NCBI GenBank assembly: GCA_902524805.1
Contig: CABZES010000005.1
Coordinates: forward strand, 24,121 to 88,120
DNA: 64,000 nt
Source: an uncultured SAR86 cluster bacterium
GTDB taxonomy: Bacteria; Pseudomonadota; Gammaproteobacteria; Magnimaribacterales; AG-339-G14
Direction of reading: 5' to 3'
This document shows positions 32,356 through 53,069 of the stretch, piece by piece (position 1 is the stretch's first letter; the number at the start of each line of letters is the position of its first letter). The notes below the pieces were generated by a model, which did not search any database, had not been told where the DNA came from, and saw only the letters and a list, made by a program, of their open reading frames with translations. A program made the translations under genes and the position numbers.

Positions 32356-32361
32356 ATTTAT

Positions 32362-34246: not shown

Positions 34247-34250
34247 ACAA

Positions 34251-34445
34251 ATGAAAATATTAAAAGTTTTTGATAATGCAGAATTAATCTTAGTTGACTT
34301 AGAAGTAAATCTTGGAAAAAAAATACAAAGTTCTCCTACACTTTGTATAAAAATGGATGGCAAGATAATACCTCTTCATAGCGCACACGATGGCAGGCCT
34401 ATATTAATGAATATGGAAAATGCTATTGAAATTGAAGATAAATAG
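34251..34445 (+). CDS. Hypothetical small protein (64 aa)
   Basis: In-frame ATG 4 nt after the P450 stop; the ORF track's longer 34128 start overlaps the P450. No family recognised. Confidence 0.45.
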   Translation: MKILKVFDNAELILVDLEVNLGKKIQSSPTLCIKMDGKIIPLHSAHDGRPILMNMENAIEIEDK

Positions 34446-34450
34446 TCTTA

Positions 34451-35191: not shown

Positions 35192-35197
35192 ACCTCA

Positions 35198-35752: not shown

Positions 35753-36660
35753 TAATCTTCATCCTTTGGCAAAAAGCCTTTGAACATGTCTGGAAGAAAA
35801 TCTGCTCTTGAATGATCGGATACTCGAACACATTTATTTTCCATTTCTCCTAGGCCTTCAATTGTAGTTTTGAGAATATCTCCATCTTTAAGAAATATAC
35901 CTTGTGTTGCACCAACTCCTGCAGGCGTACCAGTCCAAATTGTATCTCCTACTTTGAGGGTCACAATCTCAGAAAGATAGGAGATGATAGTTGGTACATC
36001 AAAAATTAAGTCGTTGGTGTTGTCTTTCTGCATTATTTTTCCATTAAGCTTACATTCAAGGTCGAGACTTTTGTAATCATTAAGAGAATCTGGTGACACT
36101 AAATATGGTCCCATGGGGCCATAAGTATCAAAAGATTTTCCTAGATTAAACATTGGTGGCTGAGTAGCAAATTGAGCAGGGCGATCAGAAATATCTTGTC
36201 CAATACACATTCCTGCTACATGATTCCACCCATCTTCTTTTTTTATGTCTTTTCCCTCTTTTCCTATAACAACTACTAGCTCAGCTTCATAATCGACAAA
36301 ATCACTACGCATTTCAACATTAGCATTCGGCCCAACAAAACATGAAGTATGTTTTGTGAACACCATAGGAACTTCTGGAATTTCCATGCCACCTTCTTCT
36401 GCATGCCCTCTATAATTCAAACCTACCGCATACGAGTTTCTACTATTTGGAACTGGATTACCAAGTTCTATATCTGATAATTTTCCTGTTGGGGATATTT
36501 CTCCAAGACTGGACGATAAGTTATTAATTTCATCTATTGAAGAAAGAGCCTGAACGCTATCAGAGCTAACAGAACCATTTGATATTTGCTCCAGATCATA
36601 ATAGTTATCTTCGTTTATTAAAATTGCTCTATTATTTGAGGTACCTAATTTAAAACTCAT
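35752..36660 (-). CDS. Fumarylacetoacetate-hydrolase (FAH) family hydrolase/hydratase/isomerase
   Basis: 302 aa with VGLNYRGHA, PMVFTKHTS, DYEAELVVVIGK and GTPAGVG, the hallmark FAH-family blocks. Confidence 0.88.
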   Translation of the reverse strand: MSFKLGTSNNRAILINEDNYYDLEQISNGSVSSDSVQALSSIDEINNLSSSLGEISPTGKLSDIELGNPVPNSRNSYAVGLNYRGHAEEGGMEIPEVPMVFTKHTSCFVGPNANVEMRSDFVDYEAELVVVIGKEGKDIKKEDGWNHVAGMCIGQDISDRPAQFATQPPMFNLGKSFDTYGPMGPYLVSPDSLNDYKSLDLECKLNGKIMQKDNTNDLIFDVPTIISYLSEIVTLKVGDTIWTGTPAGVGATQGIFLKDGDILKTTIEGLGEMENKCVRVSDHSRADFLPDMFKGFLPKDED

Positions 36661-36672
36661 AATTACTCCTTT

Positions 36673-38190: not shown

Positions 38191-38194
38191 GTTT

Positions 38195-39748
38195 TTATCT
38201 TAATTTCTTCAACGAGAGAAAAATGACAATGGTTAATAATACTATAGCTAATATGTAATACTTAAAAGCTTGAATCAAAATCCAAATGCTTATAAATATT
38301 GTCGATAATAGAGAAGGAGGATTATTAAATTCGTAATCACCTTCTAACCAAGGAGAACCCAACACGCTGCCTCCTTGTCTATCATCGCCATGAAGATAAG
38401 CATGAGCTGGATTCATATCGCCAACTACATCTCTTTCTTCATAAGAAGTAATTATTTTTTTCATTTTTTCAAATACTTCAGATTCAACTTCTGATAAATC
38501 ATTCTTTTCATAAGGATCTTTAATAATATTGAATAATTTATAAGATGCTGAAACAGGTATCAATTGAGGTTCAGACGAATACAATTTCCATTCACCATTG
38601 AACAAAGCTCTTTCATCAGAAATAACTCTTGAACCAATAAAAGCATTCTCTGGAGGAATTATTGTATTAGTTTTTAGGTTTACCCATTTATCTTTACCAT
38701 CAAATTTCATGTTATTTGAAATACTAATGCCTGATGCAGATAATAAGGTTGGTAAAATATCTTGCACAAAAAAGAATTGATCTGATTTTGATTTTTCAAT
38801 AACTCCTTTCCACCAAATGACAGCAGGGACTCTTATTCCGCCCTCAAGAGCTGAGGTTTTGCTTCCGTTCAAGCCTGCTGTACTCCCTTTGGCATTAATC
38901 AAGTTTGGAGCGATTACCTTTACTATTGGATCTATATCGAAAACAGGACCGTTATCACTAAAAAAAAGAACAATCGTTTCTTCTAAAATTCCTTCATCTT
39001 CAATTGCGTCAAGAATTTTTCCTATTTCAAAATCTAAGGCATTTACATTTGCTGCATAAACTTGATTTTTTTTATCATCAAGATAGGCAAATGATTCAAT
39101 ATTTTTAAGTGGGGCTTCGATAGGAGTATGAGGTGCGTTGAAAGCAACGTATAAAAATAGCGGACGATCCTTATCCTTGTTTTTAATTATATTTATTGCT
39201 TCATTGGCAATTAATTCCGTTGAGTATCCTTCTTCTTCTAAAGGTTTCCCATTTCTATGCCAATCTAATCGACCTGCTGCAGTATGATCAAAATATCCAA
39301 TTCCTCCAGTCATATGTCCATAGCTTGTTTCAAAGCCTCGATTAGTCGGCCAAAATTCTTTTTTAGCCATGCCAAGATGCCATTTACCTGATAATGCAGT
39401 TTGATATCCAGCTTCTTTAAAATATTGCGGCATAATTTTTAATTCGGGAGGCATACCTGTTTGTTCTGCAGCAGGATTCATGAAAGGTCTGACAACGCCA
39501 TGATTGAATATATGTAATCCTGTCAACATAGACGCCCTAGTGGGACTGCAAACAGGATTAGAATAAAATCTATTCATTTCCATCCCATCTTTAGCAAGCT
39601 GATCTATATTTGGAGTAGGTATATAGCCATCATGATAAGAAACATCACCCCAACCCAAATCATCAGTAAGAATAATTATCACATTCGGTTTCTCTAAAGA
39701 TAATAAATTTAACGAGCACACGAATAATGCAAGTAAAAAACAACGCAT
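38195..39748 (-). CDS. Cys-type (formylglycine) sulfatase, secreted, with a C-terminal hydrophobic anchor
   Basis: Signal peptide, metal site LTDDLGWGD, sulfatase signature CSPTRASMLTG and GKWHLG. The last ~45 aa form 1-2 hydrophobic helices. Confidence 0.9.
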   Translation of the reverse strand: MRCFLLALFVCSLNLLSLEKPNVIIILTDDLGWGDVSYHDGYIPTPNIDQLAKDGMEMNRFYSNPVCSPTRASMLTGLHIFNHGVVRPFMNPAAEQTGMPPELKIMPQYFKEAGYQTALSGKWHLGMAKKEFWPTNRGFETSYGHMTGGIGYFDHTAAGRLDWHRNGKPLEEEGYSTELIANEAINIIKNKDKDRPLFLYVAFNAPHTPIEAPLKNIESFAYLDDKKNQVYAANVNALDFEIGKILDAIEDEGILEETIVLFFSDNGPVFDIDPIVKVIAPNLINAKGSTAGLNGSKTSALEGGIRVPAVIWWKGVIEKSKSDQFFFVQDILPTLLSASGISISNNMKFDGKDKWVNLKTNTIIPPENAFIGSRVISDERALFNGEWKLYSSEPQLIPVSASYKLFNIIKDPYEKNDLSEVESEVFEKMKKIITSYEERDVVGDMNPAHAYLHGDDRQGGSVLGSPWLEGDYEFNNPPSLLSTIFISIWILIQAFKYYILAIVLLTIVIFLSLKKLR

Positions 39749-39788
39749 GAGTAGTTTCCCCTAGTAGTTACAAATTAGTATAGCTTAG

Positions 39789-40796
39789 TTAGCCGTTTCT
39801 ACTGTCGCCAAAAGTATCAAAATTAATGTCAGGTCCCCATTGTGACGGACCTGGTCCATCAGATTCTAGACCGTCTTCAGTAACATTAACGTCATTTGGA
39901 GGAATAGTATTGTCAAAGTAATCACCATCGGTTTGATGTTCATGTGTTTGTTTAAATGGACTTCTCCAATAATCAAATACTTGTGCTCCTTGATAGTGTC
40001 TTCCTACTCCCCATTCTAATTCATAATCAAATTCTTCTTTGTTTCGTTGTAAAATTTCATGACCTCTTAAAACATCATCAATTTGTAACATTTCAAAAGA
40101 AACATGATTTAAACCTGGCTTTCCTTCAGAAAGCATTGCAGGCAGCCAAAAGATTGTATGATGATCTGCTGGTTCGAGACCTTTGTCTAATCTAGCAAAA
40201 ATTCCCATCAATGGCGTATCGGGATTTTTTGGATCTCCTGCGTAAAGTTTGTCTGTTGCGATAATGCCTAAATGTTCGTTGTACCACTCAAGGGCAGCAG
40301 GTATATCATTCACATTGATTCCGTAATGACCAAATCTGACTATTGAGGGTGGAGCTCCTTTCACATATCTTTTTCTTTCATTTATTCTATTTATCTGACC
40401 ACCTTCATTGCTGGATTGAGGCACGAGAGCTTGATAATCGTCTCTGTCCTTAATACCAAAACAAACATCAACTCCAATTCCTTCCAAATCTTTGCCTCTA
40501 GAAATATATCCTCCACCTGGAGTTTTGAGTTCTTCGACATCAGAAAAAGCATCGGTTTTACTAATTTTTTCTAAATCCTCCATGGAAGAAGCAACATAAG
40601 TCGCCCCAAGAAATTTTTTTTCACCTTTTTTACAAACCTCTATAAAAGGCTGAGGGCCATCACCTCGCATAATTAACACATCATCAGTTTTTTCAACTGT
40701 GTGCATTCCAAAGTGCAATAAAAATTGCTCTTGGATATCTAAATCAGGACATTGCAATGTGCAATATTGAACTCCTATAGCTTTTATTACTGGCAT
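39789..40796 (-). CDS. Type I extradiol ring-cleavage dioxygenase (VOC superfamily, two-domain)
   Basis: 335 aa with His contexts HYGINV and NHVSFEM, and a GVGRHYQGAQVFDYWRSP block resembling the BphC/C23O G.GRH....F.Y motif. Confidence 0.78.
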   Translation of the reverse strand: MPVIKAIGVQYCTLQCPDLDIQEQFLLHFGMHTVEKTDDVLIMRGDGPQPFIEVCKKGEKKFLGATYVASSMEDLEKISKTDAFSDVEELKTPGGGYISRGKDLEGIGVDVCFGIKDRDDYQALVPQSSNEGGQINRINERKRYVKGAPPSIVRFGHYGINVNDIPAALEWYNEHLGIIATDKLYAGDPKNPDTPLMGIFARLDKGLEPADHHTIFWLPAMLSEGKPGLNHVSFEMLQIDDVLRGHEILQRNKEEFDYELEWGVGRHYQGAQVFDYWRSPFKQTHEHQTDGDYFDNTIPPNDVNVTEDGLESDGPGPSQWGPDINFDTFGDSRNG

Positions 40797-41596
40797 TATT
40801 TTTCCTCCATTAATTTTAATGCTTCTTCTTTTACTTCTCCTCCAAAAGTACCCATCATATGTACTAGTGGTGGTGGAAGAAGATTTGTTACAGCTTTATC
40901 AAAAAATTCTAAATCTTTAACTTTTTGATACCAATTATTTATTTTTGGTCTTTTGTCTTTGCTGAATGCTTCAGAAAGAGATAAATGATCAAAACGAAGA
41001 ATGTAAGGAAGAGTGCAGGCATCTGCTAAACCAAACTTATCTCCTGCAATCCATCCACTATCTTCAATAATATTCTCCAAATGGTCCAAAAATTCTCCCG
41101 CTTTTTTTAATGAATTTATTACAATTGGCGCTTCTATACCTTCTTCCATGGTTTCTTTTCTTGCTTGTCTTTTAACAGGATCTGGAATGCTATCTAAATC
41201 TGCTTGTTTTTCTTCATCAGACTTATCCATTTGTAAGCGTCTGACAGCAATGCCATAAGTTATGGGACCAGTATATTGTTGAAAATTATCAATTTCTTTC
41301 ATCCATAATCTCACTTTATGGATATCTTCAGGGGAAGAGGGCTTTGCTGGAATTTCTGGGAATGCATCATCTAGATATTCTAGAATTAGATTTGACTCAA
41401 TTAAAACTCCATTATTAGTCACCAAGGTAGGAACGACATGATTTGGATTAAGTTTTACATATTCAGGATCATGCTGCTCTCCAGCTAACAAGTTAACTTC
41501 TTTAGATTTATATGGAAGTTTTTTTAATTCCAGAATTAATCTTACTTTTTGTGAACAAGTTGAAGGTCCATGATGATAAAGAGTTAAATTCGTCAT
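40796..41596 (-). CDS. Glutathione S-transferase family protein
   Basis: 266 aa with N-terminal thioredoxin-like GST domain (LYHHGPSTCSQKVRL...NPNHVVPTL...ESNLILEYL). Its stop overlaps the dioxygenase start (TAATG). Confidence 0.85.
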   Translation of the reverse strand: MTNLTLYHHGPSTCSQKVRLILELKKLPYKSKEVNLLAGEQHDPEYVKLNPNHVVPTLVTNNGVLIESNLILEYLDDAFPEIPAKPSSPEDIHKVRLWMKEIDNFQQYTGPITYGIAVRRLQMDKSDEEKQADLDSIPDPVKRQARKETMEEGIEAPIVINSLKKAGEFLDHLENIIEDSGWIAGDKFGLADACTLPYILRFDHLSLSEAFSKDKRPKINNWYQKVKDLEFFDKAVTNLLPPPLVHMMGTFGGEVKEEALKLMEEK

Positions 41597-41617
41597 TATG
41601 TAAATCTATCCTAATAT

Positions 41618-41630
41618 TGACATAGTGTCA
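41618..41630. promoter_or_regulatory. Small palindrome TGACA-tag-TGTCA overlapping a TTGACA -35-like hexamer
   Basis: Read directly from the sequence. Lies 22 nt upstream of the GST operon start codon (minus strand), in the 206-bp divergent region. Confidence 0.3.
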
Positions 41631-41693
41631 CTTTTTAAATCATTTAAATAATTTTATCATTTTTTTTTGTTTACTTTTAAAGCTAAACCTTTT

Positions 41694-41721
41694 AATGTGA
41701 CAATTGACAATGTGTCACATT
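41694..41721. promoter_or_regulatory. Inverted repeat AATGTGACA-N10-TGTCACATT (candidate operator) enclosing a TTGACA hexamer
   Basis: Perfect 9-bp arms. The spacer attgacaatg contains TTGACA. Lies about 80 nt upstream of the first tandem receptor gene. Confidence 0.35.
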
Positions 41722-41802
41722 CATTGATTTGTGTCTACTTTGTTACTTTTACTTGGATGAGTAAGAGATATTTTAAAATACCTATCTTTCAAAGGGGGAG
41801 AT

Positions 41803-44295
41803 ATGATCAATTTCAAACGCATTGTTACGCTCGTCGTACTTTTTGCTACACCTATGGCTATTGCACAAGATGCAGTATTCGAAGAACTGACAGTTACAGC
41901 TCAGAAGAGGACTTCTACTGTAATGGATACCGCAGCAGCCATTGCTGCTATTTCTGGAGATGATCTCCAAGAAAGAGGAATCAGAAATATTAATGACCTG
42001 GACCAACTTTCACCTGATCTTGTAATAGGTGGAGAAGGAATTCAAAGGAAACAAATTAGAATTAGAGGGGTTGGAACTTATAGTTTTGATATTGCTGCCG
42101 ACCCATCTGTAGCAATTGTTATTGATGGTGTTGCTCAACCTAGAGCGACAACTAATACATCATCTTTCACTGATCTAGAACGAATTGAAATTCTTAAAGG
42201 TCCTCAAGGTGCGATTTATGGTGTTAACTCTATTGGTGGAATAATTAATATGGTCACTAAGAAACCAGTTGGCGGACAAGCCGGAAGAGTTATTCTTAAA
42301 ACAGGTGATAACGGTCAAGAAGGTCTTTCTTTTACTTACGAAAATGATTTAAGTAATTCTGTGTCAGGTAGATTTCACCTTTCATCTTCTCAAGATGATG
42401 GTTTATCGTTTGATGAAGTAACTGGTTTGAACGATGGAATTGATCAACAATCATTGAGAGCAACTTTTTATGGCTCTACCGATTCAGGAATGAATTGGAC
42501 CGCTGCTTTTGGGCATAGTAAAACTAATGTCGATGCGCAAATAATGGAACAATTATTCACTTGTAATACCTTAAATGGTGCCTCTCACTGGTTACCGGTT
42601 TTCTCTGCAGGAGCTACAAATCCTAATAATATTTGTACTACTTTAGCTCCTCCTACATCACAAAATACGCTAGGTGAGGTAAATCTTGAAAATGCTCTTG
42701 TTAAAGCTGCGTACGCAAGTCAAGAATCACAACCTTTATCGGTTCCTGGTTTTGCATCTATGGAAGGCATGACTGCTAGTCTAAACATGAGTAAAGATTT
42801 TGATGATTATAGTGTTACAACAATCATTGGAGCTACCAAAACCAATTCTGCTGAATTAAGAGACTTTGATGCAACAACTGCAGCTGCTCTTACACAAGGT
42901 CATCACTCAATGACTAATACAACAAGTATTGAAGTGAGAATTGATTCGGATGATTCAGTCAAATATCCATGGTCCGTTGGAGTTTATGGCTTAAGAGATC
43001 AAGGTTATAGAGAAGACAACTTTACTTCTTTCCCTCAAAGTGTACAAAACGTTTTATTTGGTTTTGGTGCAGCAGGAGCAGCAGTAGGTTTAGCTCCAGC
43101 ACCACCTAATTACGCTGCTATTTTATCTGCCATGCAAGCTTGTGTTGTTTCTGGTGATTGTCAGGCTTACTACGCTGGTGGTGCTAATCCGGTAGCAAGA
43201 ACAGCTGCAATGGTGGGTGGTCAATTTGTTACCCAACAAGATGTTGATAATTTAGTTAATGCAGTAACTGGAAAATTTGACAATATAGCAAGAATGGGGA
43301 TCAAAACATCTTCATCCGCAGTATTTGGAAATATTAAATTTCCTTTAGCCGATAACTTAGAATTATTTGTTGGTGGAAGATACTCTATACACGATAAACC
43401 TTATACTTATGAAGGAAAGACTAATGCTACAAATGCCCCATTAGTTGTAGTACCTTACACAACAAGTGGAGGTCTAACTGCAAGAGAATTCGATCCAAAA
43501 GTTACACTTGAATATACACAAGGAGATAGTTTGTCTTGGGTAACATATTCAACTGCTTACAAATCTGGAGGTCCTAGATTTGCCCAATGGACAAAAGCTA
43601 CAGCTGATATCACTTACGCACAAGAAGAACTTGAAATGATTGAAGTTGGTTACAAAACTGACCTTAATGGTGGAAGCAGCCAACTAGAGTTTACTGCGTA
43701 TAATTACGACTATACTGACAATCAACAACTATTGGTTTGTGTCCAGAATGGATCTCCGAGTGGTTGTGTAGTTACGGGTGATGCAATTGTTCAAGGACTT
43801 GATTTAACATATCGAACTTATTTATCCGATAAAACATCTTTTGGCGGAACTTACGCATTTGTGGATGCGACTTGGGATAGATTCTGTGATACAGCTGCTG
43901 CTCCTGCGACAGAAGCAAATCCATGCGGAATTAACAGAAAAGGTCAAACCTTACCTTTTTCAGCTGAAAATAATTTAAGCATGAATATTCAGCATATAGA
44001 AAATATGGACATGGGTGAATTAACTTTGACGGCTGCTGTCTCTTATAAAGATGAATATTCAGTTACGTTAGGTAAATGGCCTGGTGTTTCAACTGTCGAA
44101 GATTTAACTAAACTTAATTTGAGTGCAGAGTTAGCTTCGCCAGATGGCTGGAACTTGAGCTTAGTTTGTACAAACTGTACTGACGAAATATACCAAGCAA
44201 ATGGTTTGCAAGGTGTCCGAGCACAAGGTGGTGGTTACCGTTATGCTAATGCTGAACGAAGAAGAATTGGACTTAGTTTAGAAACTAATTTCTAA
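41803..44295 (+). CDS. TonB-dependent outer-membrane receptor (tandem paralogue 1)
   Basis: 830 aa with SD GGGGGAG, signal peptide, plug motifs (IRIRGVG, IVIDGVAQPR, LERIEILKGPQGAIYG) and C-terminal ...LETNF. Confidence 0.9.
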   Translation: MINFKRIVTLVVLFATPMAIAQDAVFEELTVTAQKRTSTVMDTAAAIAAISGDDLQERGIRNINDLDQLSPDLVIGGEGIQRKQIRIRGVGTYSFDIAADPSVAIVIDGVAQPRATTNTSSFTDLERIEILKGPQGAIYGVNSIGGIINMVTKKPVGGQAGRVILKTGDNGQEGLSFTYENDLSNSVSGRFHLSSSQDDGLSFDEVTGLNDGIDQQSLRATFYGSTDSGMNWTAAFGHSKTNVDAQIMEQLFTCNTLNGASHWLPVFSAGATNPNNICTTLAPPTSQNTLGEVNLENALVKAAYASQESQPLSVPGFASMEGMTASLNMSKDFDDYSVTTIIGATKTNSAELRDFDATTAAALTQGHHSMTNTTSIEVRIDSDDSVKYPWSVGVYGLRDQGYREDNFTSFPQSVQNVLFGFGAAGAAVGLAPAPPNYAAILSAMQACVVSGDCQAYYAGGANPVARTAAMVGGQFVTQQDVDNLVNAVTGKFDNIARMGIKTSSSAVFGNIKFPLADNLELFVGGRYSIHDKPYTYEGKTNATNAPLVVVPYTTSGGLTAREFDPKVTLEYTQGDSLSWVTYSTAYKSGGPRFAQWTKATADITYAQEELEMIEVGYKTDLNGGSSQLEFTAYNYDYTDNQQLLVCVQNGSPSGCVVTGDAIVQGLDLTYRTYLSDKTSFGGTYAFVDATWDRFCDTAAAPATEANPCGINRKGQTLPFSAENNLSMNIQHIENMDMGELTLTAAVSYKDEYSVTLGKWPGVSTVEDLTKLNLSAELASPDGWNLSLVCTNCTDEIYQANGLQGVRAQGGGYRYANAERRRIGLSLETNF

Positions 44296-44304
44296 GTCTA
44301 ATAT

Positions 44305-44338
44305 AAAAAAAAACGGCATCTTTAGGTGCCGTTTTTTT
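44305..44338 (+). terminator. Rho-independent terminator
   Basis: AAAAACGGCA-tctttagg-TGCCGTTTTTTT. Confidence 0.75.
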
Positions 44339-44457
44339 ATAAAAAAATGAATGCAAAAGGTTTACAAAACCATCAATTAAAGTAGATTTACGTTACTTAA
44401 AAATAGTATTTAGTTAAAAAAGGCAATAATTAAGCCAATTTCAACCTGGGGGAAGAA

Positions 44458-46968
44458 ATGAATAAAACAATAAACTTAGTAATTATTTCTTTATTTGCTT
44501 TTGCATCTGTAGTTACTTCTCAATCTGCCGTGTATGAGGATTTGGTAGTAACAGCAACCAAAAAAGAATCTTCATTAATGGAAACTCCCGCGGCTATTGC
44601 GGCAATAGCTGGTGACGATCTTAACAATCGAGGTATTAGTGATATTTCTGGACTAAATCAGTTAACTCCTGACCTAGTGATTGCAGGAGAAGGTCACTCA
44701 AGAACAAATGTTAGGATTAGAGGTATAGGAACTTACGGGTTTACTTCTTCAGCTGACCCATCATCTGTTTTAGTAATAGATGGCGTAGCTCAACCAAGAA
44801 TATCTAGTGCAAAACATGCTTTTAGAGATTTAGAAAGAATTGAGATATTAAAAGGACCTCAAGGAGCGCTTTATGGGACTAATGCTTTGGGTGGAATTAT
44901 TAATATTGTAACCAGAAAACCTATTGGAGGAGAATCGGGTTCCTATTCTATAGCAACAGGAAATAATGACGATTCAGATATTTCTCTATCCCTTGAAACT
45001 GATTTAAGCGATTCTACGTCTGTAAGGATATCTCTTGCTCGTGGTTACGATGCTGGTTTAGCTTATGAAGAGTTAACTGGTCGTGACGATGGCGTTGAAT
45101 ATACTTTTGGAAGAGTAGCTCTTTTTGGCACTTACGAAAACGGAACAGAGTGGAGCTCTTCTTTTAGTCACTCCAAAGACAATCAATATGCTGCTGTTTC
45201 TGAACAAGACTTTTTATGTAACTCAACAAATGCTGCTACAGAGTTATTAATTGTTGCTGCAGTCGCTCCACTTGGCTCCGTGTTTTGTAAGACTGTTAAT
45301 AATAGTACAGCCAAATCAGACATTATAAAAAGAGGCCAAGCTGATTTAACTAATGCTGTAGTGAAAGCATCTCTAGCAAGTAAATATGGTCAACCAATGA
45401 ATATTCCCGGTTATAACTTCTCTGAATTAATGAATTTCAGTTACAACGCTAAAATGAGTTTGAACGATATGACTTTAACAGCTCTGTTAGGTTATAACAA
45501 AGTTAATTCTGGTGAAGAAAGAGATTTTGATGCCACTACAATAAATGCTTTAAATCAAGGTCATCACGCTTCTTCAGATTCTACGACGATAGAATTACGC
45601 TTAGATTCTGATCCCTCAATAAGAACTCCTTGGTCTGTTGGGCTATATGGAATGAGAGATCATGGTTACAGAGAAGATCACTTCACATCATTTGGGCTTG
45701 GAGTTCCAAACTTTATAAGTTTTGGTGCAGGAGCTTTTGCATATATTGCAGGTAATCCTGGCACTGCTATTTCATTGCAAACTGCTTCACTGCCACCTAA
45801 TGCTCTTACAATTGGAACATGGTTACAAAATTGTGTGACTAATAATAGTCAATGCCAAGCTTATGCAACTCCTGCTGTGGCAAGACCAGCTATAACGGGA
45901 AGACAATACATAGACCAATATGATGTCAATAACTTTACTGGAGCTTTCACCATTCCTGGAGTCAACTTAGCAAGAGTTGGGCTAAAAACTCAAGCAACAG
46001 CTGTAAATGGAAATATAACTTTTCCTTTAGCCGATAATATTAATTTGCTTGTAGCTGGAAGATATTCTGTTCATGACAAACCATATACCTACGAAGGTAA
46101 AACAAACAAAACTGGACAAGCCTTATTAGTCGTAGAAGATTTTTTAGTTCGTCATGGAACAACAGAAAAAGAATTTGATCCAAAATTGACTTTAGAAATG
46201 ACAAATGGCGAATCTCTTTCTTGGCTGACATTTGCTACTGGGTATAAATCAGCGGGAATAGGATTTGCTAATTGGTCTCCTGCTGATGCAAAAAAACCTT
46301 ATGCAGCAGAGAAGTTAGAAATGATTGAACTTGGATACAAAACTACTCTTTCTGAAGGCAGCGCTCAATTAGAAGCCATTTTATATAACTACGATTATAC
46401 AGATCATCAGCAACTTCTAGTTTGTAGTACAGCTCAAGGCCCTGCTGGTTGTGTAGTAAATGGTGACGCAACATTACAAGGTATTGACTTGGCTTATAGA
46501 ACCTATGTTACTGATAATACAAGCCTAGGTTTGTCTTATGCGTTTACGGATGCAACTTGGGATAAATTTATCGATACAGCATGTTGTGGTGTCGGATCTG
46601 CTTATGATAGATCAGGACAACAATTACCATTTGTTGCAGAAAATAATTTACTTTTAAATTTAGAACATATTCAAAACCTTGAAATAGGTGATGTAACTTA
46701 CAATTTAAATTTATCCTACAAGGATGAATACTCAGTTCAATTAGATAGATGGGAAGGAGTTACTCTGGTAAGCGACTTAGTGTTAGTAAATGCCAATATT
46801 TCATTAATGACTCAAGGAGGAGTTGAAATTTCAACTTTTTGTACAAATTGTTCAGACGAAGAATATTTATCTGTTGCATTAATGGGAGTTAGAGCCCAAG
46901 GTGGAGGCGCAAGAACTGCCTATGCTGAAGGCAGAAGAATAGGCTTGCAAATATCTTCTGATTTTTAA
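44458..46968 (+). CDS. TonB-dependent outer-membrane receptor (tandem paralogue 2)
   Basis: 836 aa, collinear with the 41803 product along its whole length, including the plug motifs and conserved Cys pairs. C-terminal ...ISSDF. Confidence 0.9.
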   Translation: MNKTINLVIISLFAFASVVTSQSAVYEDLVVTATKKESSLMETPAAIAAIAGDDLNNRGISDISGLNQLTPDLVIAGEGHSRTNVRIRGIGTYGFTSSADPSSVLVIDGVAQPRISSAKHAFRDLERIEILKGPQGALYGTNALGGIINIVTRKPIGGESGSYSIATGNNDDSDISLSLETDLSDSTSVRISLARGYDAGLAYEELTGRDDGVEYTFGRVALFGTYENGTEWSSSFSHSKDNQYAAVSEQDFLCNSTNAATELLIVAAVAPLGSVFCKTVNNSTAKSDIIKRGQADLTNAVVKASLASKYGQPMNIPGYNFSELMNFSYNAKMSLNDMTLTALLGYNKVNSGEERDFDATTINALNQGHHASSDSTTIELRLDSDPSIRTPWSVGLYGMRDHGYREDHFTSFGLGVPNFISFGAGAFAYIAGNPGTAISLQTASLPPNALTIGTWLQNCVTNNSQCQAYATPAVARPAITGRQYIDQYDVNNFTGAFTIPGVNLARVGLKTQATAVNGNITFPLADNINLLVAGRYSVHDKPYTYEGKTNKTGQALLVVEDFLVRHGTTEKEFDPKLTLEMTNGESLSWLTFATGYKSAGIGFANWSPADAKKPYAAEKLEMIELGYKTTLSEGSAQLEAILYNYDYTDHQQLLVCSTAQGPAGCVVNGDATLQGIDLAYRTYVTDNTSLGLSYAFTDATWDKFIDTACCGVGSAYDRSGQQLPFVAENNLLLNLEHIQNLEIGDVTYNLNLSYKDEYSVQLDRWEGVTLVSDLVLVNANISLMTQGGVEISTFCTNCSDEEYLSVALMGVRAQGGGARTAYAEGRRIGLQISSDF

Positions 46969-46978
46969 TTAAATGTTT

Positions 46979-47010
46979 AAAAAACGGCATCCTTTGTGGT
47001 GCCGTTTTTT
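46979..47010 (+). terminator. Rho-independent terminator (near-copy of the one at 44305)
   Basis: AAAAAACGGCA-tcctttgtgg-TGCCGTTTTTT. Confidence 0.75.
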
Positions 47011-47030
47011 ATTTAATATAAAATAATCTT

Positions 47031-47645
47031 ATGGCATCAAATAAATTAAGCTCAAAAGAAAAATTAATAGATGCCGCTGTTTATCATTTAAATACAGAAG
47101 GCTTAAATAACTTTACTGCAACAAGCTTAACTAGAGCGGCTAATTTAGGATATGGAACTTTTTATAAATACTTTTCTTCAACTGAAGATGTTTTAGAAGA
47201 CGCCATAAAAAAAAGAATATCTGATTGGTCTCACTTAATCTCAGAGTCTAATAAAAATGAACCAGATAGGTTGTTTGCTTTTATAGAAGCTTTTTATAAA
47301 ACAATAATAGAATTAAGTAATAATTTATCAATGAGGTGGCTTCTGGAAAAACCTAATTATTTTGTTGAAGTTTATTTTGAATTAACGTTTCCCCATGCAA
47401 AAAAGGATGTCGAATCTGCCGTTGAAACAAATCAAATTTCTTCTGATTATTTAAATAATTTTGAAACCATTTTTAAACTTTATTTATGGCAGATGTGTGG
47501 AGCCTTATCTATGGTCGATGAGGGATCAAATTATAAAGATATCGCTTTAACTTTAATAAAATTAATTATTCCTTATGGCACAGATGAAGTTAAAATCGAA
47601 CAAATTTGTAAGCTTTTAGAGGAGAGAAATAGTAATAAAATTTAA
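47031..47645 (+). CDS. TetR/AcrR-family transcriptional regulator
   Basis: 204 aa with N-terminal HTH: KEKLIDAAVYHLNTEGLNNFTATSLTRAANLGYGTFYKYFSSTEDVL. Confidence 0.82.
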   Translation: MASNKLSSKEKLIDAAVYHLNTEGLNNFTATSLTRAANLGYGTFYKYFSSTEDVLEDAIKKRISDWSHLISESNKNEPDRLFAFIEAFYKTIIELSNNLSMRWLLEKPNYFVEVYFELTFPHAKKDVESAVETNQISSDYLNNFETIFKLYLWQMCGALSMVDEGSNYKDIALTLIKLIIPYGTDEVKIEQICKLLEERNSNKI

Positions 47646-47647
47646 TT

Positions 47648-49015
47648 ATGAAACTTAATAGCGACTTGCAACCTAAAGTTGTAATAAACGAACCGCTCTA
47701 TGAGCCGGTAAACAAATATCAAAGAAATTTTGATTTAACCGACGTTTTTTTATTTGAAAAAGGGCAGCCTTACGAAGAATATAAACAATTAAGAGAAAAT
47801 TCACCCGTTCATTTCCACGAAGCAGGAATTGGTGATAGTGAACCAGGTTTTTGGGTTTTAACAAAATATGATGACATAGAATTTGTTTCTAGAAATCAAC
47901 AAATTTTTTCATCTCAATTAGCAAGTGGAACAACTTTGACCCTAGGTTATTCACAAGAAGTTAGTATTGATCAATTATTTAGATCGGCTCTAGATCATAT
48001 GCTTGGTACTGATGATAAATTGCACTTATCAATGCGAAATCCTCACATGAAGTTTTTTACTCCCAAGTATGTTGAAGAATTGAGAAAAAAGGTTTCTTTA
48101 AAAGTTACAGAACTGCTTGATGGAATTGCTCCATTAGGAAAATGCAATTTAGTTGATTCTATTTCGTCAGAACTTCCTATTTTTTCCCTGAGTGAAATTT
48201 TAGGTGTGCCAGAAGAAGACAGGTCAAAAATAAAAGAATGGATGACTTTTTTAGAAATGGCTCAAGTTGTTGGAGCAACTCAAGCTGCAGAGAAAAATAA
48301 TATTGAATTGAACGAAGATCAACAAGCTTCGGCTCCAGATCCGGCAATGATTGCTATGTTTACAAATATTGTTAAAGAGATGTTTGATTATGGAAGAGAT
48401 ATTCTTCTTAAAAGAAGAAAAGATCCGAAAGATGATCTTCTCTCGGTTATTGCTAATATGGAAGTTGACGGAGAGAAATTACCTGATGAATATTTAGACG
48501 GTTCTTGGCTGTTAATTATTATTGCTGGAAACGAAACGACTAGAAATTCTATCAGCGGAACAATAAAACTTTTAACTGAAAATCCTGATCAAAAAGAAAA
48601 ACTAATTAACAATATGGAACTACTTCCTAATATGGTTAATGAGGCTATAAGATTAATTTCGCCTGTGATTTATATGAGAAGAACGACCAAAGAAGAAACT
48701 TTAATTGGAGATCAAAAAATTGGTCCCCAAGAAAAAGTTGTTTTATATTATGGTGCAGCAAATAGAGATCCAGATATCTTTAAGAATCCCGATGCATTTG
48801 ATATTGAAAGAGAAAATGCTAAAAAACATTTAGCTTTTGGTTATGGAAGACATTTATGTTTAGGTAAGCATATGGCCAATATGCAACTAGCTGAAGTATA
48901 TAAACAAATACTTTCAAGATTTCCAGATATGCAGCAAAGCGATGACTGGAAAGTTGTTCCAAATAATTTTACTCACTCAATATCTGAGATGCCTGTCTCA
49001 TTCACGCCTGAATAA
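47648..49015 (+). CDS. Cytochrome P450
   Basis: 455 aa with I-helix IIIAGNETTRNS, ExxR (NEAIRLISP) and heme-Cys loop FGYGRHLCLGKHMA. Starts 2 nt after the TetR stop. Confidence 0.9.
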   Translation: MKLNSDLQPKVVINEPLYEPVNKYQRNFDLTDVFLFEKGQPYEEYKQLRENSPVHFHEAGIGDSEPGFWVLTKYDDIEFVSRNQQIFSSQLASGTTLTLGYSQEVSIDQLFRSALDHMLGTDDKLHLSMRNPHMKFFTPKYVEELRKKVSLKVTELLDGIAPLGKCNLVDSISSELPIFSLSEILGVPEEDRSKIKEWMTFLEMAQVVGATQAAEKNNIELNEDQQASAPDPAMIAMFTNIVKEMFDYGRDILLKRRKDPKDDLLSVIANMEVDGEKLPDEYLDGSWLLIIIAGNETTRNSISGTIKLLTENPDQKEKLINNMELLPNMVNEAIRLISPVIYMRRTTKEETLIGDQKIGPQEKVVLYYGAANRDPDIFKNPDAFDIERENAKKHLAFGYGRHLCLGKHMANMQLAEVYKQILSRFPDMQQSDDWKVVPNNFTHSISEMPVSFTPE

Positions 49016-49017
49016 AT

Positions 49018-50109
49018 ATGCAAAATTTTATTGATCTTTTTATGAGTGTTTGGAATCAAGGCTTATTAGGCGTAAGTATTTCTCAAATTATAATTTCATT
49101 AGTTATTTTATTGATTGCTTTTATATTAAGAGGAGTTGTTTCAAACATAGTAATTAAATGGCTTGAGGTTTTAACATCAAAAACTGACTCGCAAGTAGAC
49201 GACATTATTCTAGACTCTTTAAAAAAACCGCTTGGTTTTATTCCAATAACCATTGGACTTTATATAATAACTGTTTACCTTCCTTTATCGGGCTTGCTAG
49301 ATATTATTGCAACTAATATTGTTAAAGCCTTTGTTGTGTTTACAATTTTTAGTGTTCTTTCTAATGCCGTAGATCCACTTTTTAAAGTTTTAGCTGGAAA
49401 TACGTGGCTTACCTCCGCAATGTCTTCTTGGTTAGAAAAATCTTTAAAAGTGCTGATATGGATTATAGGATTTGCAGTAATCCTAGATATCTTTGGAATA
49501 GAAATTGGGCCGTTAATTGCTGGACTAGGACTTTTTTCAGTTGCGATCGCACTTGGAGCACAAGATTTATTTAAAAACTTAATTGCAGGAATGTTAATAA
49601 TTGGAGAAAACAGGTTTCAACCTGGAGACCGCATAGAAGTAATAGGACAATTTCACGGAATTGTTGAGACAATAGGGTTTAGATCTACTACGGTAAGACT
49701 ATTCAATACCTCACCAATGATCATTCCTAACAAGGATTTATCCGATGTAAGTGTCATCAATCACAAACAATTAAAATTTCGAAGAATTAGATGGGTAATT
49801 AATTTAATTTATGCAACAAATTCAGAAGCAATCGTAAATATTTGTAGAGATATTGAAAAAGTAATAAACGACACAAACAATGGCTTTGCTATTAACCCAG
49901 GGCAAGAGTCATTTGCAAAAGCAGTTGAGTTTGGAGCAAGTTCCATAGACTTAGAGATTCTTTGTTACACCGAAGTCAGTGATTACACAGGATTTTCTGA
50001 GGTTAAACAGAAGTTATTATTAGAAATACAAAGAATAGTTTCAAAGCATGGCTCTGACTTCGCTTTCCCTTCTAGATCTATTTATATTGAATCGTCTCCA
50101 TCAGAATAG
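49018..50109 (+). CDS. Mechanosensitive ion channel (MscS family)
   Basis: 363 aa with several N-terminal TMs, then pore-helix/beta-domain junction GAQDLFKNLIAGMLIIGENRFQPGDRIEV. Confidence 0.88.
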   Translation: MQNFIDLFMSVWNQGLLGVSISQIIISLVILLIAFILRGVVSNIVIKWLEVLTSKTDSQVDDIILDSLKKPLGFIPITIGLYIITVYLPLSGLLDIIATNIVKAFVVFTIFSVLSNAVDPLFKVLAGNTWLTSAMSSWLEKSLKVLIWIIGFAVILDIFGIEIGPLIAGLGLFSVAIALGAQDLFKNLIAGMLIIGENRFQPGDRIEVIGQFHGIVETIGFRSTTVRLFNTSPMIIPNKDLSDVSVINHKQLKFRRIRWVINLIYATNSEAIVNICRDIEKVINDTNNGFAINPGQESFAKAVEFGASSIDLEILCYTEVSDYTGFSEVKQKLLLEIQRIVSKHGSDFAFPSRSIYIESSPSE

Positions 50110-50114
50110 ATTAG

Positions 50115-50660
50115 ATGACAAGATGGTTTTTTCTTTTCTTACTTGCCTTAACGTTAGTAATTTCCTTTAGGCTGTTTACATTTTCTCCATTTCCGAACTT
50201 ATCAAAAAATTGCGACAAAACCTCAATAGAATCGAATATGTCTGGAATTTGGAACCTGAATAGGGTAGATAATTTTTCGGGAATAGAGCCATATTTAAAT
50301 GCAAAAGATTTAAATAGTTATTCTTTTTTTATCTATTATCTAGTCCCATCTATTCTTAGTAATAGTCAAATTTTATCGATAGATTTTTGCGGAGATGAAG
50401 TTACTGTAACTTATAATGTTTTTAGAAATTGGAGACAATATAATTTTTCTACAATTCAAAATCAGGCCTTTAAATCAAATTCATCTGATTTATCTGGAAT
50501 TGCTAGTTTTCAGCCAAAAATCATATCAATTGAAATAAATTCAAAAGATATAGACTTTACAGAAGAATTATATTTAGATGGCGGGGAATTAATTAGAGAA
50601 ACAGAATTTTCAAACTCAAAAACAGGAAAAATAAGGTACTTTTATAGAAAAAATGACTAG
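50115..50660 (+). CDS. N-terminally anchored protein with a cytosolic-FABP/iLBP-like beta-barrel signature
   Basis: 181 aa with a hydrophobic N-terminus, then GIWNLNRVDNF, ..LSIDFCGDEVTVTYNVFRN..YNF.. and a C-terminal LDGGELI...KIRYFYR. These align by eye with FABP4/CRABP blocks. Confidence 0.55.
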   Translation: MTRWFFLFLLALTLVISFRLFTFSPFPNLSKNCDKTSIESNMSGIWNLNRVDNFSGIEPYLNAKDLNSYSFFIYYLVPSILSNSQILSIDFCGDEVTVTYNVFRNWRQYNFSTIQNQAFKSNSSDLSGIASFQPKIISIEINSKDIDFTEELYLDGGELIRETEFSNSKTGKIRYFYRKND

Positions 50661-51513
50661 TCCTAAAGAATATATATTACGCGTGACGTGTCCAGATAGG
50701 TTTGGAGTTGTTGCAAAAGTATCGACTTGTTTAAATGATTCAGAACTATTTATTTTAGATTCAGCTCATTTTGGAGACCCAGATACCAATAAATTTTTTA
50801 TGAGAGTTAAAGTTATTTCTCCAAATAAAAATTTTAAATATAAATCATTTGAAAAAAAATTCTCTTTGATTGCTAATGAATTAAATATTGATTGGACATT
50901 TATTGATGCCAGTATTAAACCAAGAACGGCAATTTTTGTTTCAAAATATAGTCACTGCTTGCAAGATCTACTTTATAGAGAAAGTGTTGAATCATTGCCT
51001 ATAGATATTAAGTGTATAATTTCTAACCATCCAGATCTAAGAAAAATTGCAAAAAGCTATGACATCCCTTATCACTTTATAAATATGAAAAAAAATTCGA
51101 AAAGTGTTTCAGAAGCTAAAATCAATCAAATCTTAAATAAAGAAAATGTGCAACTCAATATACTTGCTAGGTATATGCAAATTTTATCCAAATCGTTTGT
51201 TAAAAAACATTATGGAAATATTATAAATATCCATCACTCGTTTCTTCCAAGTTTTAAAGGAGCAAAACCATACCAACAAGCTTATAGTAAAGGAGTCAAA
51301 ATTTTAGGTGCTACAGCGCATTATGTTTCATCTGAATTGGACGAAGGACCAATTATAGAACAAACGGTTGATAGAATTAATCATTCTATGACTCCAAAAG
51401 AAATGGAGATAATCGGCAGAGATATTGAGTCTATTACTTTAGCGAAAGCTGTTAAGTATCACGTTGAGCAGAGAATTTTTTTGAATGATGGTAAGACAGT
51501 GATTTTTAATTAG
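50653..51513 (+). CDS. purU: Formyltetrahydrofolate deformylase
   Basis: 286 aa with N-terminal ACT domain (ILRVTCPDRFGVVAKVS) and formyltransferase core INIHHSFLPSFKGAKPY...GATAHYV. Confidence 0.93.
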   Translation: MTSPKEYILRVTCPDRFGVVAKVSTCLNDSELFILDSAHFGDPDTNKFFMRVKVISPNKNFKYKSFEKKFSLIANELNIDWTFIDASIKPRTAIFVSKYSHCLQDLLYRESVESLPIDIKCIISNHPDLRKIAKSYDIPYHFINMKKNSKSVSEAKINQILNKENVQLNILARYMQILSKSFVKKHYGNIINIHHSFLPSFKGAKPYQQAYSKGVKILGATAHYVSSELDEGPIIEQTVDRINHSMTPKEMEIIGRDIESITLAKAVKYHVEQRIFLNDGKTVIFN

Positions 51514-51522
51514 GAGAAGAAA

Positions 51523-51909
51523 ATGAGTATTAATTTAAAGGGCTATTCAACTATTGGAACAAATAATAAGGAGGCAGCAGAAATTTTTTACGATGGTGTA
51601 TTAGAACAATTGGACCTAAGGAAATTTCCTGCAAATGACAGAATAACTATGTGGACTTCTAAAGAAGACGGCTCAGTAATATTAGCTATAGCAATTCCAT
51701 ATGATGGCGAAATAGCACAACATGGAAATGGAACGATGAAAGCTATTGCTCTTGGGTCGCAAGAAGAAGTCATAACAATGTACAACAAAGCAATGGAAAT
51801 GGGCGCAATTGATGATGGCGAGCCTGGTATGCGAGCAGGTAAGTTTTATGGTGCTTATGTATACGACCTCGATGGGAATAAACTTTGTTTTTTTAATTTT
51901 GGAGATTAA
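51523..51909 (+). CDS. VOC (glyoxalase/bleomycin-resistance) family protein
   Basis: 128 aa, single VOC-module size, with the end motif YGAYVYDLDGNKL. Confidence 0.7.
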   Translation: MSINLKGYSTIGTNNKEAAEIFYDGVLEQLDLRKFPANDRITMWTSKEDGSVILAIAIPYDGEIAQHGNGTMKAIALGSQEEVITMYNKAMEMGAIDDGEPGMRAGKFYGAYVYDLDGNKLCFFNFGD

Positions 51910-53069
51910 CTCAAAGCTTGGTTGATATCGTCAATCAAATCTTCGATAGATTCAATACCGACTGACAATCTTACGAGCCCATCAGATATTCCTATCTCGT
52001 CTCTTACTGATTTCGGAACTGAAGCATGAGTCATAAGAGCAGGGTGTTCAATTAAACTTTCAACACCTCCAAGGCTTTCCGCCAAAGAGAAAATTTTCGT
52101 TTTTTCAAGAAATTTCTTAGAAGCTTCCAGGCCACCGTTTATTTCTAAAGAAACTATTCCACCAAATCCATTCATTTGATTTTTAGCTAGCTCGTGTTGG
52201 GGATGAGATTCTAATCCTGGATAAATTACTTTACTTATTTTGTTGTTATTGGTTAATTCTTTAGCAAGTATAAGGGCATTCTCACTGTGCCTTTCCATTC
52301 TTAAGCCTAATGTTTTTAAACTTCTTAAAATAAGGTAACTATCAAACGTACTAGTTATTGGACCTAAAGAATTATGAATATTAGACATTTTATCAATCAA
52401 CTCTTGGTCATCTTTTCCAATTACTAAAACACCTGCAATTAAATCTGAATGACCGCCTAAAAACTTAGTAGCTGAATGAAGAACAATGTCTATACCAAAA
52501 TTTAGAGGTTTTTGAATATAAGACGATGCAAAAGTATTATCACAAACGGAAAGAATACTATTTGCTTTAGCAAAATTTGCAATTTGTTCTAAATCAGCAA
52601 TTTTTAAAAGAGGATTGGTAGGTGTTTCTACGAAAATCATTTTGGTTTTGTCTGTTAAAGCGTTTTCAACATTTTCAAAATTAGTCATATCCACATAAGA
52701 GACTGTAATTCCTTGAGATTTAGTTTTTACTTCGTTAAATAGCCTGACTGTTCCCCCGTAAAGATCATCCATAGCAATTACATGATCGTCTGGTTCTAAT
52801 AATTCCACACATGCAGAAATAGCTGCTACGCCTGAAGAAAAACCATATCCTTTTATGCCATCTTCTAGGCTAGTCATGCATTCTTCTAAAGCATTTCTAG
52901 TTGGATTGCCAGATCTAGAATAATCATAGCCTTTGTGAATACCTGGAGAATCTTGTTTAAAAGTAGAAGAAGTATAAATAGGCATCATAACTGCCCCAGT
53001 CAAAGGATCAGCTTCTTGTCCAGCATGAATAGATCTAGTTTCAAATCCCTGTTTTTTCTTTTTACTCAT
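51906..53069 (-). CDS. Cystathionine gamma-lyase / gamma-synthase family PLP enzyme
   Basis: 387 aa with PLP-Lys context HSATKFLGGHSD, the N-terminal TRSIHAG motif and ESLGGVES. Confidence 0.9.
   Translation of the reverse strand: MSKKKKQGFETRSIHAGQEADPLTGAVMMPIYTSSTFKQDSPGIHKGYDYSRSGNPTRNALEECMTSLEDGIKGYGFSSGVAAISACVELLEPDDHVIAMDDLYGGTVRLFNEVKTKSQGITVSYVDMTNFENVENALTDKTKMIFVETPTNPLLKIADLEQIANFAKANSILSVCDNTFASSYIQKPLNFGIDIVLHSATKFLGGHSDLIAGVLVIGKDDQELIDKMSNIHNSLGPITSTFDSYLILRSLKTLGLRMERHSENALILAKELTNNNKISKVIYPGLESHPQHELAKNQMNGFGGIVSLEINGGLEASKKFLEKTKIFSLAESLGGVESLIEHPALMTHASVPKSVRDEIGISDGLVRLSVGIESIEDLIDDINQALS

Follow-up and report, generated by a model that had tools for sequence, protein, structure and literature searches.

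A TonB receptor, TetR and arylsulfatase locus with a conserved palindrome in the SAR86 cluster, and its P450 and MscS neighbours

This study concerns part of a 64,000-nucleotide stretch of DNA (the window) from an uncultured SAR86 cluster bacterium, in which genes for two TonB-dependent receptors (TBDR1 and TBDR2), a TetR-family regulator, a cytochrome P450, an MscS-family channel and a 181-aa membrane-anchored protein (o181) follow one another on one strand and face a divergent arylsulfatase operon. The region very probably consists of three units with separate histories lying side by side: unit A (35198–47645), comprising the operon, the receptors and the TetR gene; unit B, the P450; and unit C, the MscS channel, o181 and PurU. 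Our reading of unit A, to which we give a probability of about 0.6, is that its genes serve the TonB-dependent uptake and the breakdown of a sulfated aromatic, with the TetR protein acting on palindromes. An earlier note on this DNA had proposed a single import and oxidation module linked to the operon; that link held for the receptors and TetR, while the P450, the MscS channel and the FABP-like o181 fell outside it.

The window is low in G+C (about 0.28–0.38), and its genes find matches in SAR86 cluster genomes (order Magnimaribacterales), both single-cell and metagenome-assembled. For comparison we fetched 80 loci around relatives of the P450, one genome per species (35 of the 80 are SAR86), mapped the window proteins onto them and clustered all of their open reading frames (ORFs). 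A further 14 loci were obtained from metagenome contigs scanned with the window's dioxygenase, and the whole comparison covers about 55 SAR86 loci, numbered with the prefix L; L089, L090 and L094 are short contigs, and L100 is from the window's own population. Independent gene calls for L098–L100 match the annotations used here. Pfam hits were counted at E ≤ 0.001 unless stated otherwise, with family-specific score cut-offs. Pfam and NCBIfam confirmed each family assignment made below; o181 has no family match.

A conserved palindrome upstream of the GST and receptor genes

The ORFs, gaps and coordinates are as the earlier note had described them, including the 206-bp spacer between the glutathione S-transferase gene (GST; ending at 41596, minus strand) and TBDR1 (beginning at 41803). 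The spacer and the receptor–regulator block that follows it contain these features:

41618–41631: operator-like palindrome O1, TGACA-TAG-TGTCA(C), 21 nt upstream of the GST ATG
41670–41698, plus strand: predicted TBDR1 promoter, −35 TTTACT (41670–41675), 17-nt spacer, −10 TAATGT (41693–41698)
41697–41718: operator-like palindrome O2, core TGACA-ATG-TGTCA(C) at 41705–41718, nested in GTGACA-N10-TGTCAC
41803–44295, plus strand: TBDR1, 830 aa, Plug domain
44307–44338: bidirectional hairpin terminator after TBDR1, with T-run; spacer fold energy −29.2 kcal/mol
44361–44388: TBDR2 promoter-like site, TTTACA-16-TAGATT, from the consensus scan
44458–46968, plus strand: TBDR2, 836 aa, Plug domain
46978–47011, plus strand: hairpin terminator between TBDR2 and TetR, with T-run
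47031–47645, plus strand: TetR-family regulator, PF00440, 30.5 bits against a cut-off of 24

The two palindromes follow a 15-bp consensus, (G/T)TGACA-N3-TGTCAC, with the exact core TGACA-N3-TGTCA. This core occurs exactly twice in the 64-kb window (0.06 copies expected), at 41618–41630 and 41705–41717, both times within the spacer. Across 922 kb of SAR86 DNA the exact core was found 20 times, and each copy stands before either GST or an operon-adjacent receptor gene. On the GST side, AAAG-TGACA-N3-TGTCA stands 21–24 nt before the ATG in each of the nine loci where the start of GST is visible, and it is kept whether an SDR or a receptor gene lies beyond. On the receptor side, (C/G/T)TGACA-N3-TGTCAC is found about 90 nt before the ATG of every operon-adjacent receptor, and equivalents of O2 are present in L001, L002, L037, L082, L089, L090, L094 and L098–L100. 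The position of the palindrome is conserved, and its flanks and central N3 vary. It is missing upstream of TBDR2 in the window. A more specific motif, TTGACANNGTGTCAC, gave no hits when searched in the loci, and relaxing it to TGACA-N3-TGTCA recovered the conserved sites. Six further loci (L083–L088, e.g. L085 8439–11788) hold a related dioxygenase–SDR pair beside a divergent FAD monooxygenase (32% identical); they carry no sulfatase, GST or TetR gene, and the palindrome is missing from them.

O2 overlaps the predicted transcription start of TBDR1, near 41705, and the long TBDR1 contigs of two metatranscriptome runs start at 41706, inside the palindrome. The promoter itself was placed by inference, because its match is too weak for a consensus scan to report. 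That scan found fewer sites than in shuffled sequence and missed the conserved TBDR promoter, so that promoter calls from sequence are weak here; we kept it for terminators only. In the comparison of loci, the element GTTTAC(T/A)TTTA and its spacing to the palindrome are conserved before the operon-adjacent receptor in 7 of 8 loci, L082 having a shifted GGTTTACAAAAC variant, and in most loci the layout is GTTTAC(T/A)TTTA, a 17-nt spacer, a TAAnnT-like hexamer and then the palindrome. A 98-aa ORF with a TTG start (41667–41963, plus strand) spans the operator, the 5' untranslated region and the TBDR1 start, and is most likely spurious.

Which protein might read this sequence? The TetR regulator has its helix-turn-helix domain at residues 12–57 of 204, and the segment LGYGTFYKYFSSTED of this domain does not vary among five lineages in which overall identity falls as low as 49% and the C-terminal half diverges. 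This is the pattern expected with a fixed operator and an evolving ligand pocket. The TetR gene is always found beside the receptor and the operon, whether or not a P450 is present, and receptor and TetR accompany the operon in every lineage that shows GST and the sulfatase operon complete (the window, L001, L002, L037, L082 and L098–L100). One of these, L082, is a distant lineage (TetR 49% identical, GST 56%, dioxygenase 82%, TBDR1-type receptor 76%). Here TetR, terminator and TBDR adjoin a divergent operon of SDR, GST, dioxygenase, sulfatase, FAD monooxygenase, FAA-family hydrolase and o184. Downstream of TetR this lineage has genes for a DUF2061 protein and a ferritin-like protein and, between them, an ORF of 155 aa; P450 and MscS are both missing there. 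The visible parts of L089, L090 and L094 are consistent with the L082 arrangement. A search for distant TetR homologues listed only hits that are at least 69% identical and thus provided no independent lineages; L082 came instead from the metagenome scan with the dioxygenase. Taken together, the comparison points to TetR as the candidate repressor acting at O1 and O2.

We also considered that the region might have no dedicated regulation, the palindromes being promoter-associated or structural DNA without a local binder and the adjacency of the genes a product of genome packing. Genes are indeed tightly packed across the window, the consensus scan performed below shuffled sequence with weak promoter calls, and transcript levels of TBDR1 and the operon are very different. 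This explanation is nonetheless improbable, since the 20 of 20 core copies sit at two positions that are conserved across lineages with proteins up to 50% different, the motif co-occurs with TetR and is absent from related loci that lack it, and the helix-turn-helix of TetR does not vary.

Receptors, transcript levels and the divergent catabolic operon

TBDR1 and TBDR2 are, as had been proposed, paralogues, with 50% identity across their full length. Both have a Plug domain above cut-off (PF07715; E 2e-18 and 6e-16), and their sequences show a TonB-box-like ELTVTA or DLVVTA near the N-terminus and a C-terminal Phe. Neither has a Pfam barrel match at E ≤ 0.001, and the precomputed Pfam list of the L002-type orthologue includes PF00593. 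TBDR1 shares 76% identity with the receptor found in the distant L082 and 89% with the L090 receptor. TBDR2 is 74% identical to the single receptor of L001 and L094; it is a second receptor type in the same slot, with a promoter-like site of its own and no operator. Overall, the operon-adjacent slot is occupied by three receptor types, mutually about 50% identical, in genomes whose flanking genes are 80–90% identical (window 41803–46968; L001 6716–9313; L002 6847–9324; L082 5605–8100). The window has two types in tandem and has lost the SDR gene of its relatives, and L100 likewise carries both receptors.

To see how these genes are transcribed in situ, we aligned metatranscriptome contigs from 8 marine runs (5 studies) to 35001–53000; contig depth is a crude measure of expression, and the contigs are unstranded. 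Depth was distributed as follows:

TBDR1: depth bins about 2–87
TBDR2: depth bins 0–43
TetR to o181: depth bins 0–11
Divergent operon: depth bins 0–14

TBDR1 gave the most abundant transcript, roughly ten-fold above the genes from TetR to o181. Depth falls at the terminator at 44307–44338, and one contig terminates at 46986, within the TBDR2–TetR terminator. The latter hairpin, with its stem CGGCA(T/C)C...G(A/G)TGCCG and T-run, recurs in L001, L002, L037 and L082, making five lineages with the window. With two strong terminators and unequal depth, 41803–50660 does not behave as a single transcription unit; the metatranscriptomes speak against one transcript and favour the view that TBDR1 is a separate unit with high expression. 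Such data had been suggested as a check on whether the genes are co-regulated, and at the level of contigs they set the receptors apart from the TetR–P450 run. In run X1 a short contig at 46461–46733, in the 3' part of TBDR2, reaches a depth of 57.6 where the rest of the gene has 1–10, and a promoter-like site lies at 46489–46518; the peak could reflect an internal start that feeds TetR, or noise.

The divergent operon consists of six genes:

35198–35752, minus strand: 184-aa ORF (o184), operon tail, no Pfam or NCBIfam hit, nor a usable one at permissive thresholds
35752–36660, minus strand: FAA-family (fumarylacetoacetate) hydrolase, PF01557, E 1e-60
36673–38190, minus strand: FAD-dependent aromatic hydroxylase, MhpA-like, PF01494, E 1e-43
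38195–39748, minus strand: Cys-type arylsulfatase, PF00884, E 2.7e-57; arylsulfatase model NF010322
39789–40796, minus strand: VOC-superfamily (extradiol-type) ring-cleavage dioxygenase, PF00903, weak HpaD match
40796–41596, minus strand: GST, GST_N and GST_C domains

The sulfatase combines the domain of the type I (formylglycine) class with the C/S-x-P-x-R motif, here CSPTR at residues 67–71. Since its translation also has a signal-like N-terminal segment and a hydrophobic C-terminal helix, the enzyme is probably exported and membrane-tethered, with desulfation taking place in the periplasm. The hydroxylase scores 352 bits against the NCBIfam subfamily NF004829, under its cut-off of 390, and the FAA-family hydrolase resembles HpaG and didehydro-deoxy-rhamnonate hydrolase. 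GST has a maiA-like N-terminus, and its best PDB match is LigF (E 4.5e-17), too weak a match for an etherase function to be assigned. Judged by these similarities, the MhpA-like hydroxylase, VOC dioxygenase, GST and FAA-family hydrolase plausibly form a ring-cleavage route; the domain hits neither support nor exclude a halophenol (Pcp/Lin-like) or gentisate-type pathway. o184 lies directly behind the hydrolase in L081, L082, L098 and L099 and is probably the last gene of the operon.

Two observations concern the operon and its surroundings. Metatranscriptome contigs from two runs of different studies (X1 and X15) skip 108 nt within the dioxygenase gene, at 40202–40311, which may be a strain variant or an assembly effect. 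Beyond the operon tail, 31909–35191 holds DoxX (31909–32355), an SRPBCC/polyketide-cyclase-like protein (32362–32754), a second P450 (32945–34246, PF00067) and a Sir2 deacetylase (34451–35191), and the same set flanks the operon tail in L081.

The P450 and the MscS, o181 and PurU genes

Downstream of TetR, the P450, the MscS channel and o181 lie on one strand, with gaps of 2, 2 and 5 nt, just as reported before. The same-strand tight run continues past 50660 into PurU and a 128-aa ORF:

47648–49015, plus strand: cytochrome P450, PF00067, 99.7 bits
49018–50109, plus strand: MscS-family channel, PF21088, PF00924 and PF21082, all over cut-off
50115–50660, plus strand: o181, SAR86-restricted 181-aa orphan with an N-terminal transmembrane anchor and a predicted FABP-fold beta-barrel
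50653–51513, plus strand: PurU, formyltetrahydrofolate deformylase, NF004684, 377.7 bits against a cut-off of 223; 8-nt overlap with o181
51523–51909, plus strand: o128, 128-aa ORF with a sub-threshold Glyoxalase/VOC match only

The P450 has the motifs of its family intact (heme loop FGYGRHLCLG, EAIR, I-helix AGNETT). The PDB entries that match it best are a reconstructed ancestral CYP125 (1.5e-78, 267.9 bits) and CYP153 (~1e-57), with extant CYP125 at about 164–171 bits. Membership in a P450 family is by convention a matter of at least 40% identity. By sequence the protein appears closest to the CYP125/CYP153/CYP124/CYP142 group. Among the 35 SAR86 P450 loci, only L001, L002 and L037 have TBDR and TetR upstream and the sulfatase operon beyond; in these three the P450 is 88–91% identical and the layout is that of the window, with one receptor and with an SDR gene at the head of the divergent operon. 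L098 and L099 have the L002-type layout. In L003, L004 and L036 (P450 about 75% identical) the order P450–MscS–o181–PurU–o128 is kept; receptor, TetR and sulfatase operon are missing, and the genes upstream are MoxR, VWA, an ABC transporter, an acyltransferase, csrA and tRNA-Arg(ACG). The other approximately 29 loci (P450 about 67%) share this upstream gene set and carry DUF1295, a steroid-5-alpha-reductase-family (Steroid_dh) gene and a Zn-dehydrogenase downstream; in these loci MscS is absent or 4 kb away on the opposite strand. This placement of the P450, after csrA and tRNA-Arg(ACG) and before DUF1295, a 3-oxo-5-alpha-steroid 4-dehydrogenase-family gene and the Zn-dehydrogenase, is seen in L005–L032 and L063 (e.g. 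L012 9896–14616), a context which suggests a sterol- or isoprenoid-like lipid as substrate. Alphaproteobacterial relatives of the P450 (about 50% identical) have none of the window's neighbour genes.

None of the ABC transporter, acyltransferase, csrA and tRNA-Arg(ACG) genes turned up when we searched the window for them, which places a break in gene order exactly between TetR and the P450. As the flanking csrA and tRNA-Arg(ACG) genes are themselves absent from the window, a simple island inserted at the tRNA could not be confirmed, and we claim the breakpoint only. Most likely, the P450 is a core SAR86 gene for a lipid-like substrate that in this subclade has come to lie downstream of TetR. 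The two genes are probably co-transcribed in the window, where the 2-nt junction is spanned by one metatranscriptome contig.

TetR regulators encoded beside P450 genes are a known pattern, and the TetR protein might mainly regulate the downstream P450, in the manner of Bm3R1 and P450 BM-3, leaving the palindromes of the divergent promoter to some other protein. The contig across the junction would fit, as would the short gap between the two genes (2 nt in the window, 2–3 nt in L002-type relatives and 8 nt in L001). We consider this unlikely. The TetR of L082, with an identical DNA-reading helix, keeps receptor, operon and palindrome with no P450 nearby; about 32 SAR86 orthologues of the P450 outside the subclade lack an adjacent TetR; and the stretch from the TBDR2 terminator to the P450 contains no operator-like repeat.

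The MscS channel and its neighbours tell a similar story of independence. In L095–L097 a homologue of o181 (36% identical) starts 3 nt after an MscS gene (71–76% identical) and overlaps or abuts purU, L095 showing the same overlap with PurU as the window; upstream of MscS, L095 has ATP-grasp and Alpha-E genes and no P450. MscS, o181 and PurU are thus an independently conserved trio. The position of o128 after purU is conserved in seven SAR86 lineages.

The description of o181 as an anchored FABP-like protein holds at the level of predicted fold. Its AlphaFold model (pLDDT 80.7, pTM 0.75) has a transmembrane helix followed by a strand, two helices and eight strands, and as a model only it shows the ten-strand barrel with helix-turn-helix lid of the FABP family. 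The top Foldseek matches in the PDB are FABP5, CRABP2, I-FABP and myelin P2 (probability 1.0, E ~1e-5, target-normalised TM-score 0.65–0.71), at 11–17% identity over the structural alignment. At the sequence level o181 had no family match at E ≤ 0.001 and no PF00061, and at E ≤ 1 Lipocalin_8 alone, with 15.4 bits against a cut-off of 27.2. A word-indexed search gave a family of 40 members, and a profile run against 1.84 billion representative proteins gave 24 hits, which are SAR86-type orphans and mostly fragments. The modelled barrel probably sits in the periplasm. In every lineage seen, o181 follows MscS by 3–5 nt. It is conceivable, though doubtful, that o181 is a functional partner of MscS, for example a periplasmic lipid-binding subunit that would tune gating or couple the channel to lipid uptake; if so, it would be a tethered bacterial relative-by-fold of eukaryotic FABPs in a new role.

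These results bear directly on the proposal that all of 41597–50660 is one module, in which a hydrophobic or sulfated substrate would enter through the receptors, be carried by the FABP-like protein, oxidised by the P450 and sensed by TetR, and have its breakdown completed by the operon. Several observations speak for it: the gaps from TetR to o181 are 2–5 nt on one strand, the closest relatives (L001, L002, L037 and L098–L100) keep the same arrangement, the predicted FABP fold suits a hydrophobic ligand, the P450 comes from a clan of lipid and sterol hydroxylases, and the junction of TetR and P450 is crossed by one contig. We nevertheless regard it as quite unlikely, for in most SAR86 species P450, MscS and o181 occur without TBDR, TetR or operon, and in L082 TetR, TBDR and operon occur without P450, MscS or o181. 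Independent occurrence in relatives had been named as what would speak against the module, and it is the case for P450, MscS and the FABP-like protein and not for TBDR and TetR. Furthermore, the tight run extends into the housekeeping gene purU, terminators isolate the receptors with transcript depth differing by an order of magnitude, no palindrome is found near TetR, P450 or MscS, and the locus has no redox partner for the P450 (a ferredoxin or reductase gene) nearby. In a streamlined genome, close packing of genes cannot be taken as a sign of a common function, and annotation of this pathway should leave out the P450, the MscS channel and the FABP-fold protein.

A model for unit A and its place among known systems

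In the mechanism we propose, a TetR-family dimer would bind the 15-bp palindromes at the TBDR1 start and upstream of GST, and would repress both the receptor gene and the divergent operon. The substrate or its metabolite would bind the variable C-terminal domain of TetR and bring about derepression. The receptor would then carry an aryl sulfate into the periplasm, where the membrane-tethered arylsulfatase would strip the sulfate; the MhpA-like FAD monooxygenase would hydroxylate the phenolic product, the VOC dioxygenase would open the ring, and GST and the FAA-family hydrolase would lead to central metabolites. SAR86 lacks assimilatory sulfate reduction (PMC3358033), so sulfate is probably removed to reach the carbon, and the gain is likely carbon, not sulfur. 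The same study found varied catabolic enzymes in SAR86 TonB loci (PMC3358033), and an order-wide comparison describes aromatic ring cleavage as widespread and GSTs and TonB transporters as numerous (PMC11582366); it ascribes arylsulfatases to sulfolipids and mentions neither TetR nor P450 (PMC11582366). In the literature on sulfated phenolics and arylsulfatases in marine bacteria we found no such locus described.

A number of points weigh against this model. Concerning regulation, another regulator encoded elsewhere could recognise the palindrome. Autoregulation is common in the TetR family, and none is evident here, with no palindrome before TetR; only 19 nt separate this gene from a strong terminator, and its own promoter was not located. 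The TetR block is found apart from the P450 in one lineage only, L082, and given the probable co-transcription of TetR and P450, the latter may in practice share the control of the block. Transcript depth of the divergent operon is low though it shares the operator region with the highly expressed TBDR1, so that the two are not simply co-expressed. Concerning the pathway, a search of the PDB with the dioxygenase returned nothing informative, with no close solved structure, and the enzyme has no close characterised relative; GST could be an isomerase, a LigF-like etherase or a dehalogenase; and the locus yielded no inner-membrane transporter that could take up the desulfated product.

What the locus offers is a testable pairing of a highly expressed receptor, a periplasmic arylsulfatase and a ring-cleavage pathway with a candidate TetR sensor and a 15-bp operator, and it bears on the question of what the many TonB receptors of SAR86 import. 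SAR86 cannot assimilate sulfate, and the locus therefore suggests that sulfated aromatics in dissolved organic matter supply it with carbon. Ligand screening of TetR could serve as a handle to the identity of the compound.

The CUT loci of Xanthomonas are TBDR-containing catabolic loci. Like these and the 'tonB loci' of SAR86 (Dupont et al. 2012, PMC3358033), unit A places a TBDR beside degradative enzymes and a local regulator. It differs in having an arylsulfatase with aromatic hydroxylation and ring cleavage in place of glycoside hydrolases or lipases, in showing no inner-membrane transporter, and in that its operator and candidate TetR were defined by comparison alone. With the SusC/SusD polysaccharide utilization loci (PULs) of Bacteroidota, in which sulfatases are common, it shares the coupling of TBDR uptake to periplasmic trimming and local regulation. 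Unit A, however, has no SusD-like lipoprotein, no carbohydrate-active enzyme (CAZyme) and no hybrid two-component or ECF/anti-sigma regulator, its host is a gammaproteobacterium, and its downstream enzymes act on an aromatic ring. Among the ORFs of 29.4–55.5 kb there was no SusD or glycoside hydrolase match, and the label 'PUL-like' given to the region earlier therefore fits only loosely, there being no SusD and no CAZyme. In Pseudomonas, the atsACBR-sftR-atsK-sftP cluster combines an arylsulfatase and the TonB receptor SftP, and through it sulfate esters of the aryl and alkyl type are taken up and hydrolysed (PMC3596284). The pairing of arylsulfatase and TonB receptor is common to both. The Pseudomonas cluster serves sulfur scavenging under control of the LysR-type SftR and CysB and has an ABC importer, whereas unit A has TetR, ring cleavage and a likely gain of carbon.

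TetR with tetO, and Bm3R1, whose gene is linked to P450 BM-3, are established repressor–operator systems. Unit A has in common with TetR/tetO a regulator of about 200 aa whose helix-turn-helix is N-terminal, a palindromic candidate operator of 15 bp over a promoter, and divergent targets; its candidate operators differ in lying 3–5 kb from the TetR gene, past two terminators, and not in its own upstream region. The TetR gene of the window is directly upstream of the P450, as in the Bm3R1 case, although here the linkage is recent and limited to one lineage. The solved structures that best match this P450, CYP125, CYP142, CYP124 and CYP153, are sterol side-chain, branched-lipid and alkane terminal hydroxylases, and the DUF1295 and steroid-5-alpha-reductase-like genes beside it in most SAR86 are not found beside it in the window. 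Mycobacterium tuberculosis Rv0813c is a bacterial FABP-like protein. o181 resembles the FABP/CRABP proteins in its predicted topology, a strand and a helix-turn-helix followed by nine strands that close into a barrel, and differs from them in lacking detectable sequence similarity, in its N-terminal membrane anchor, in its confinement to SAR86 and in its constant pairing with MscS. Set against these systems, unit A is an uncharacterised addition to the known class of TBDR-linked catabolic loci.

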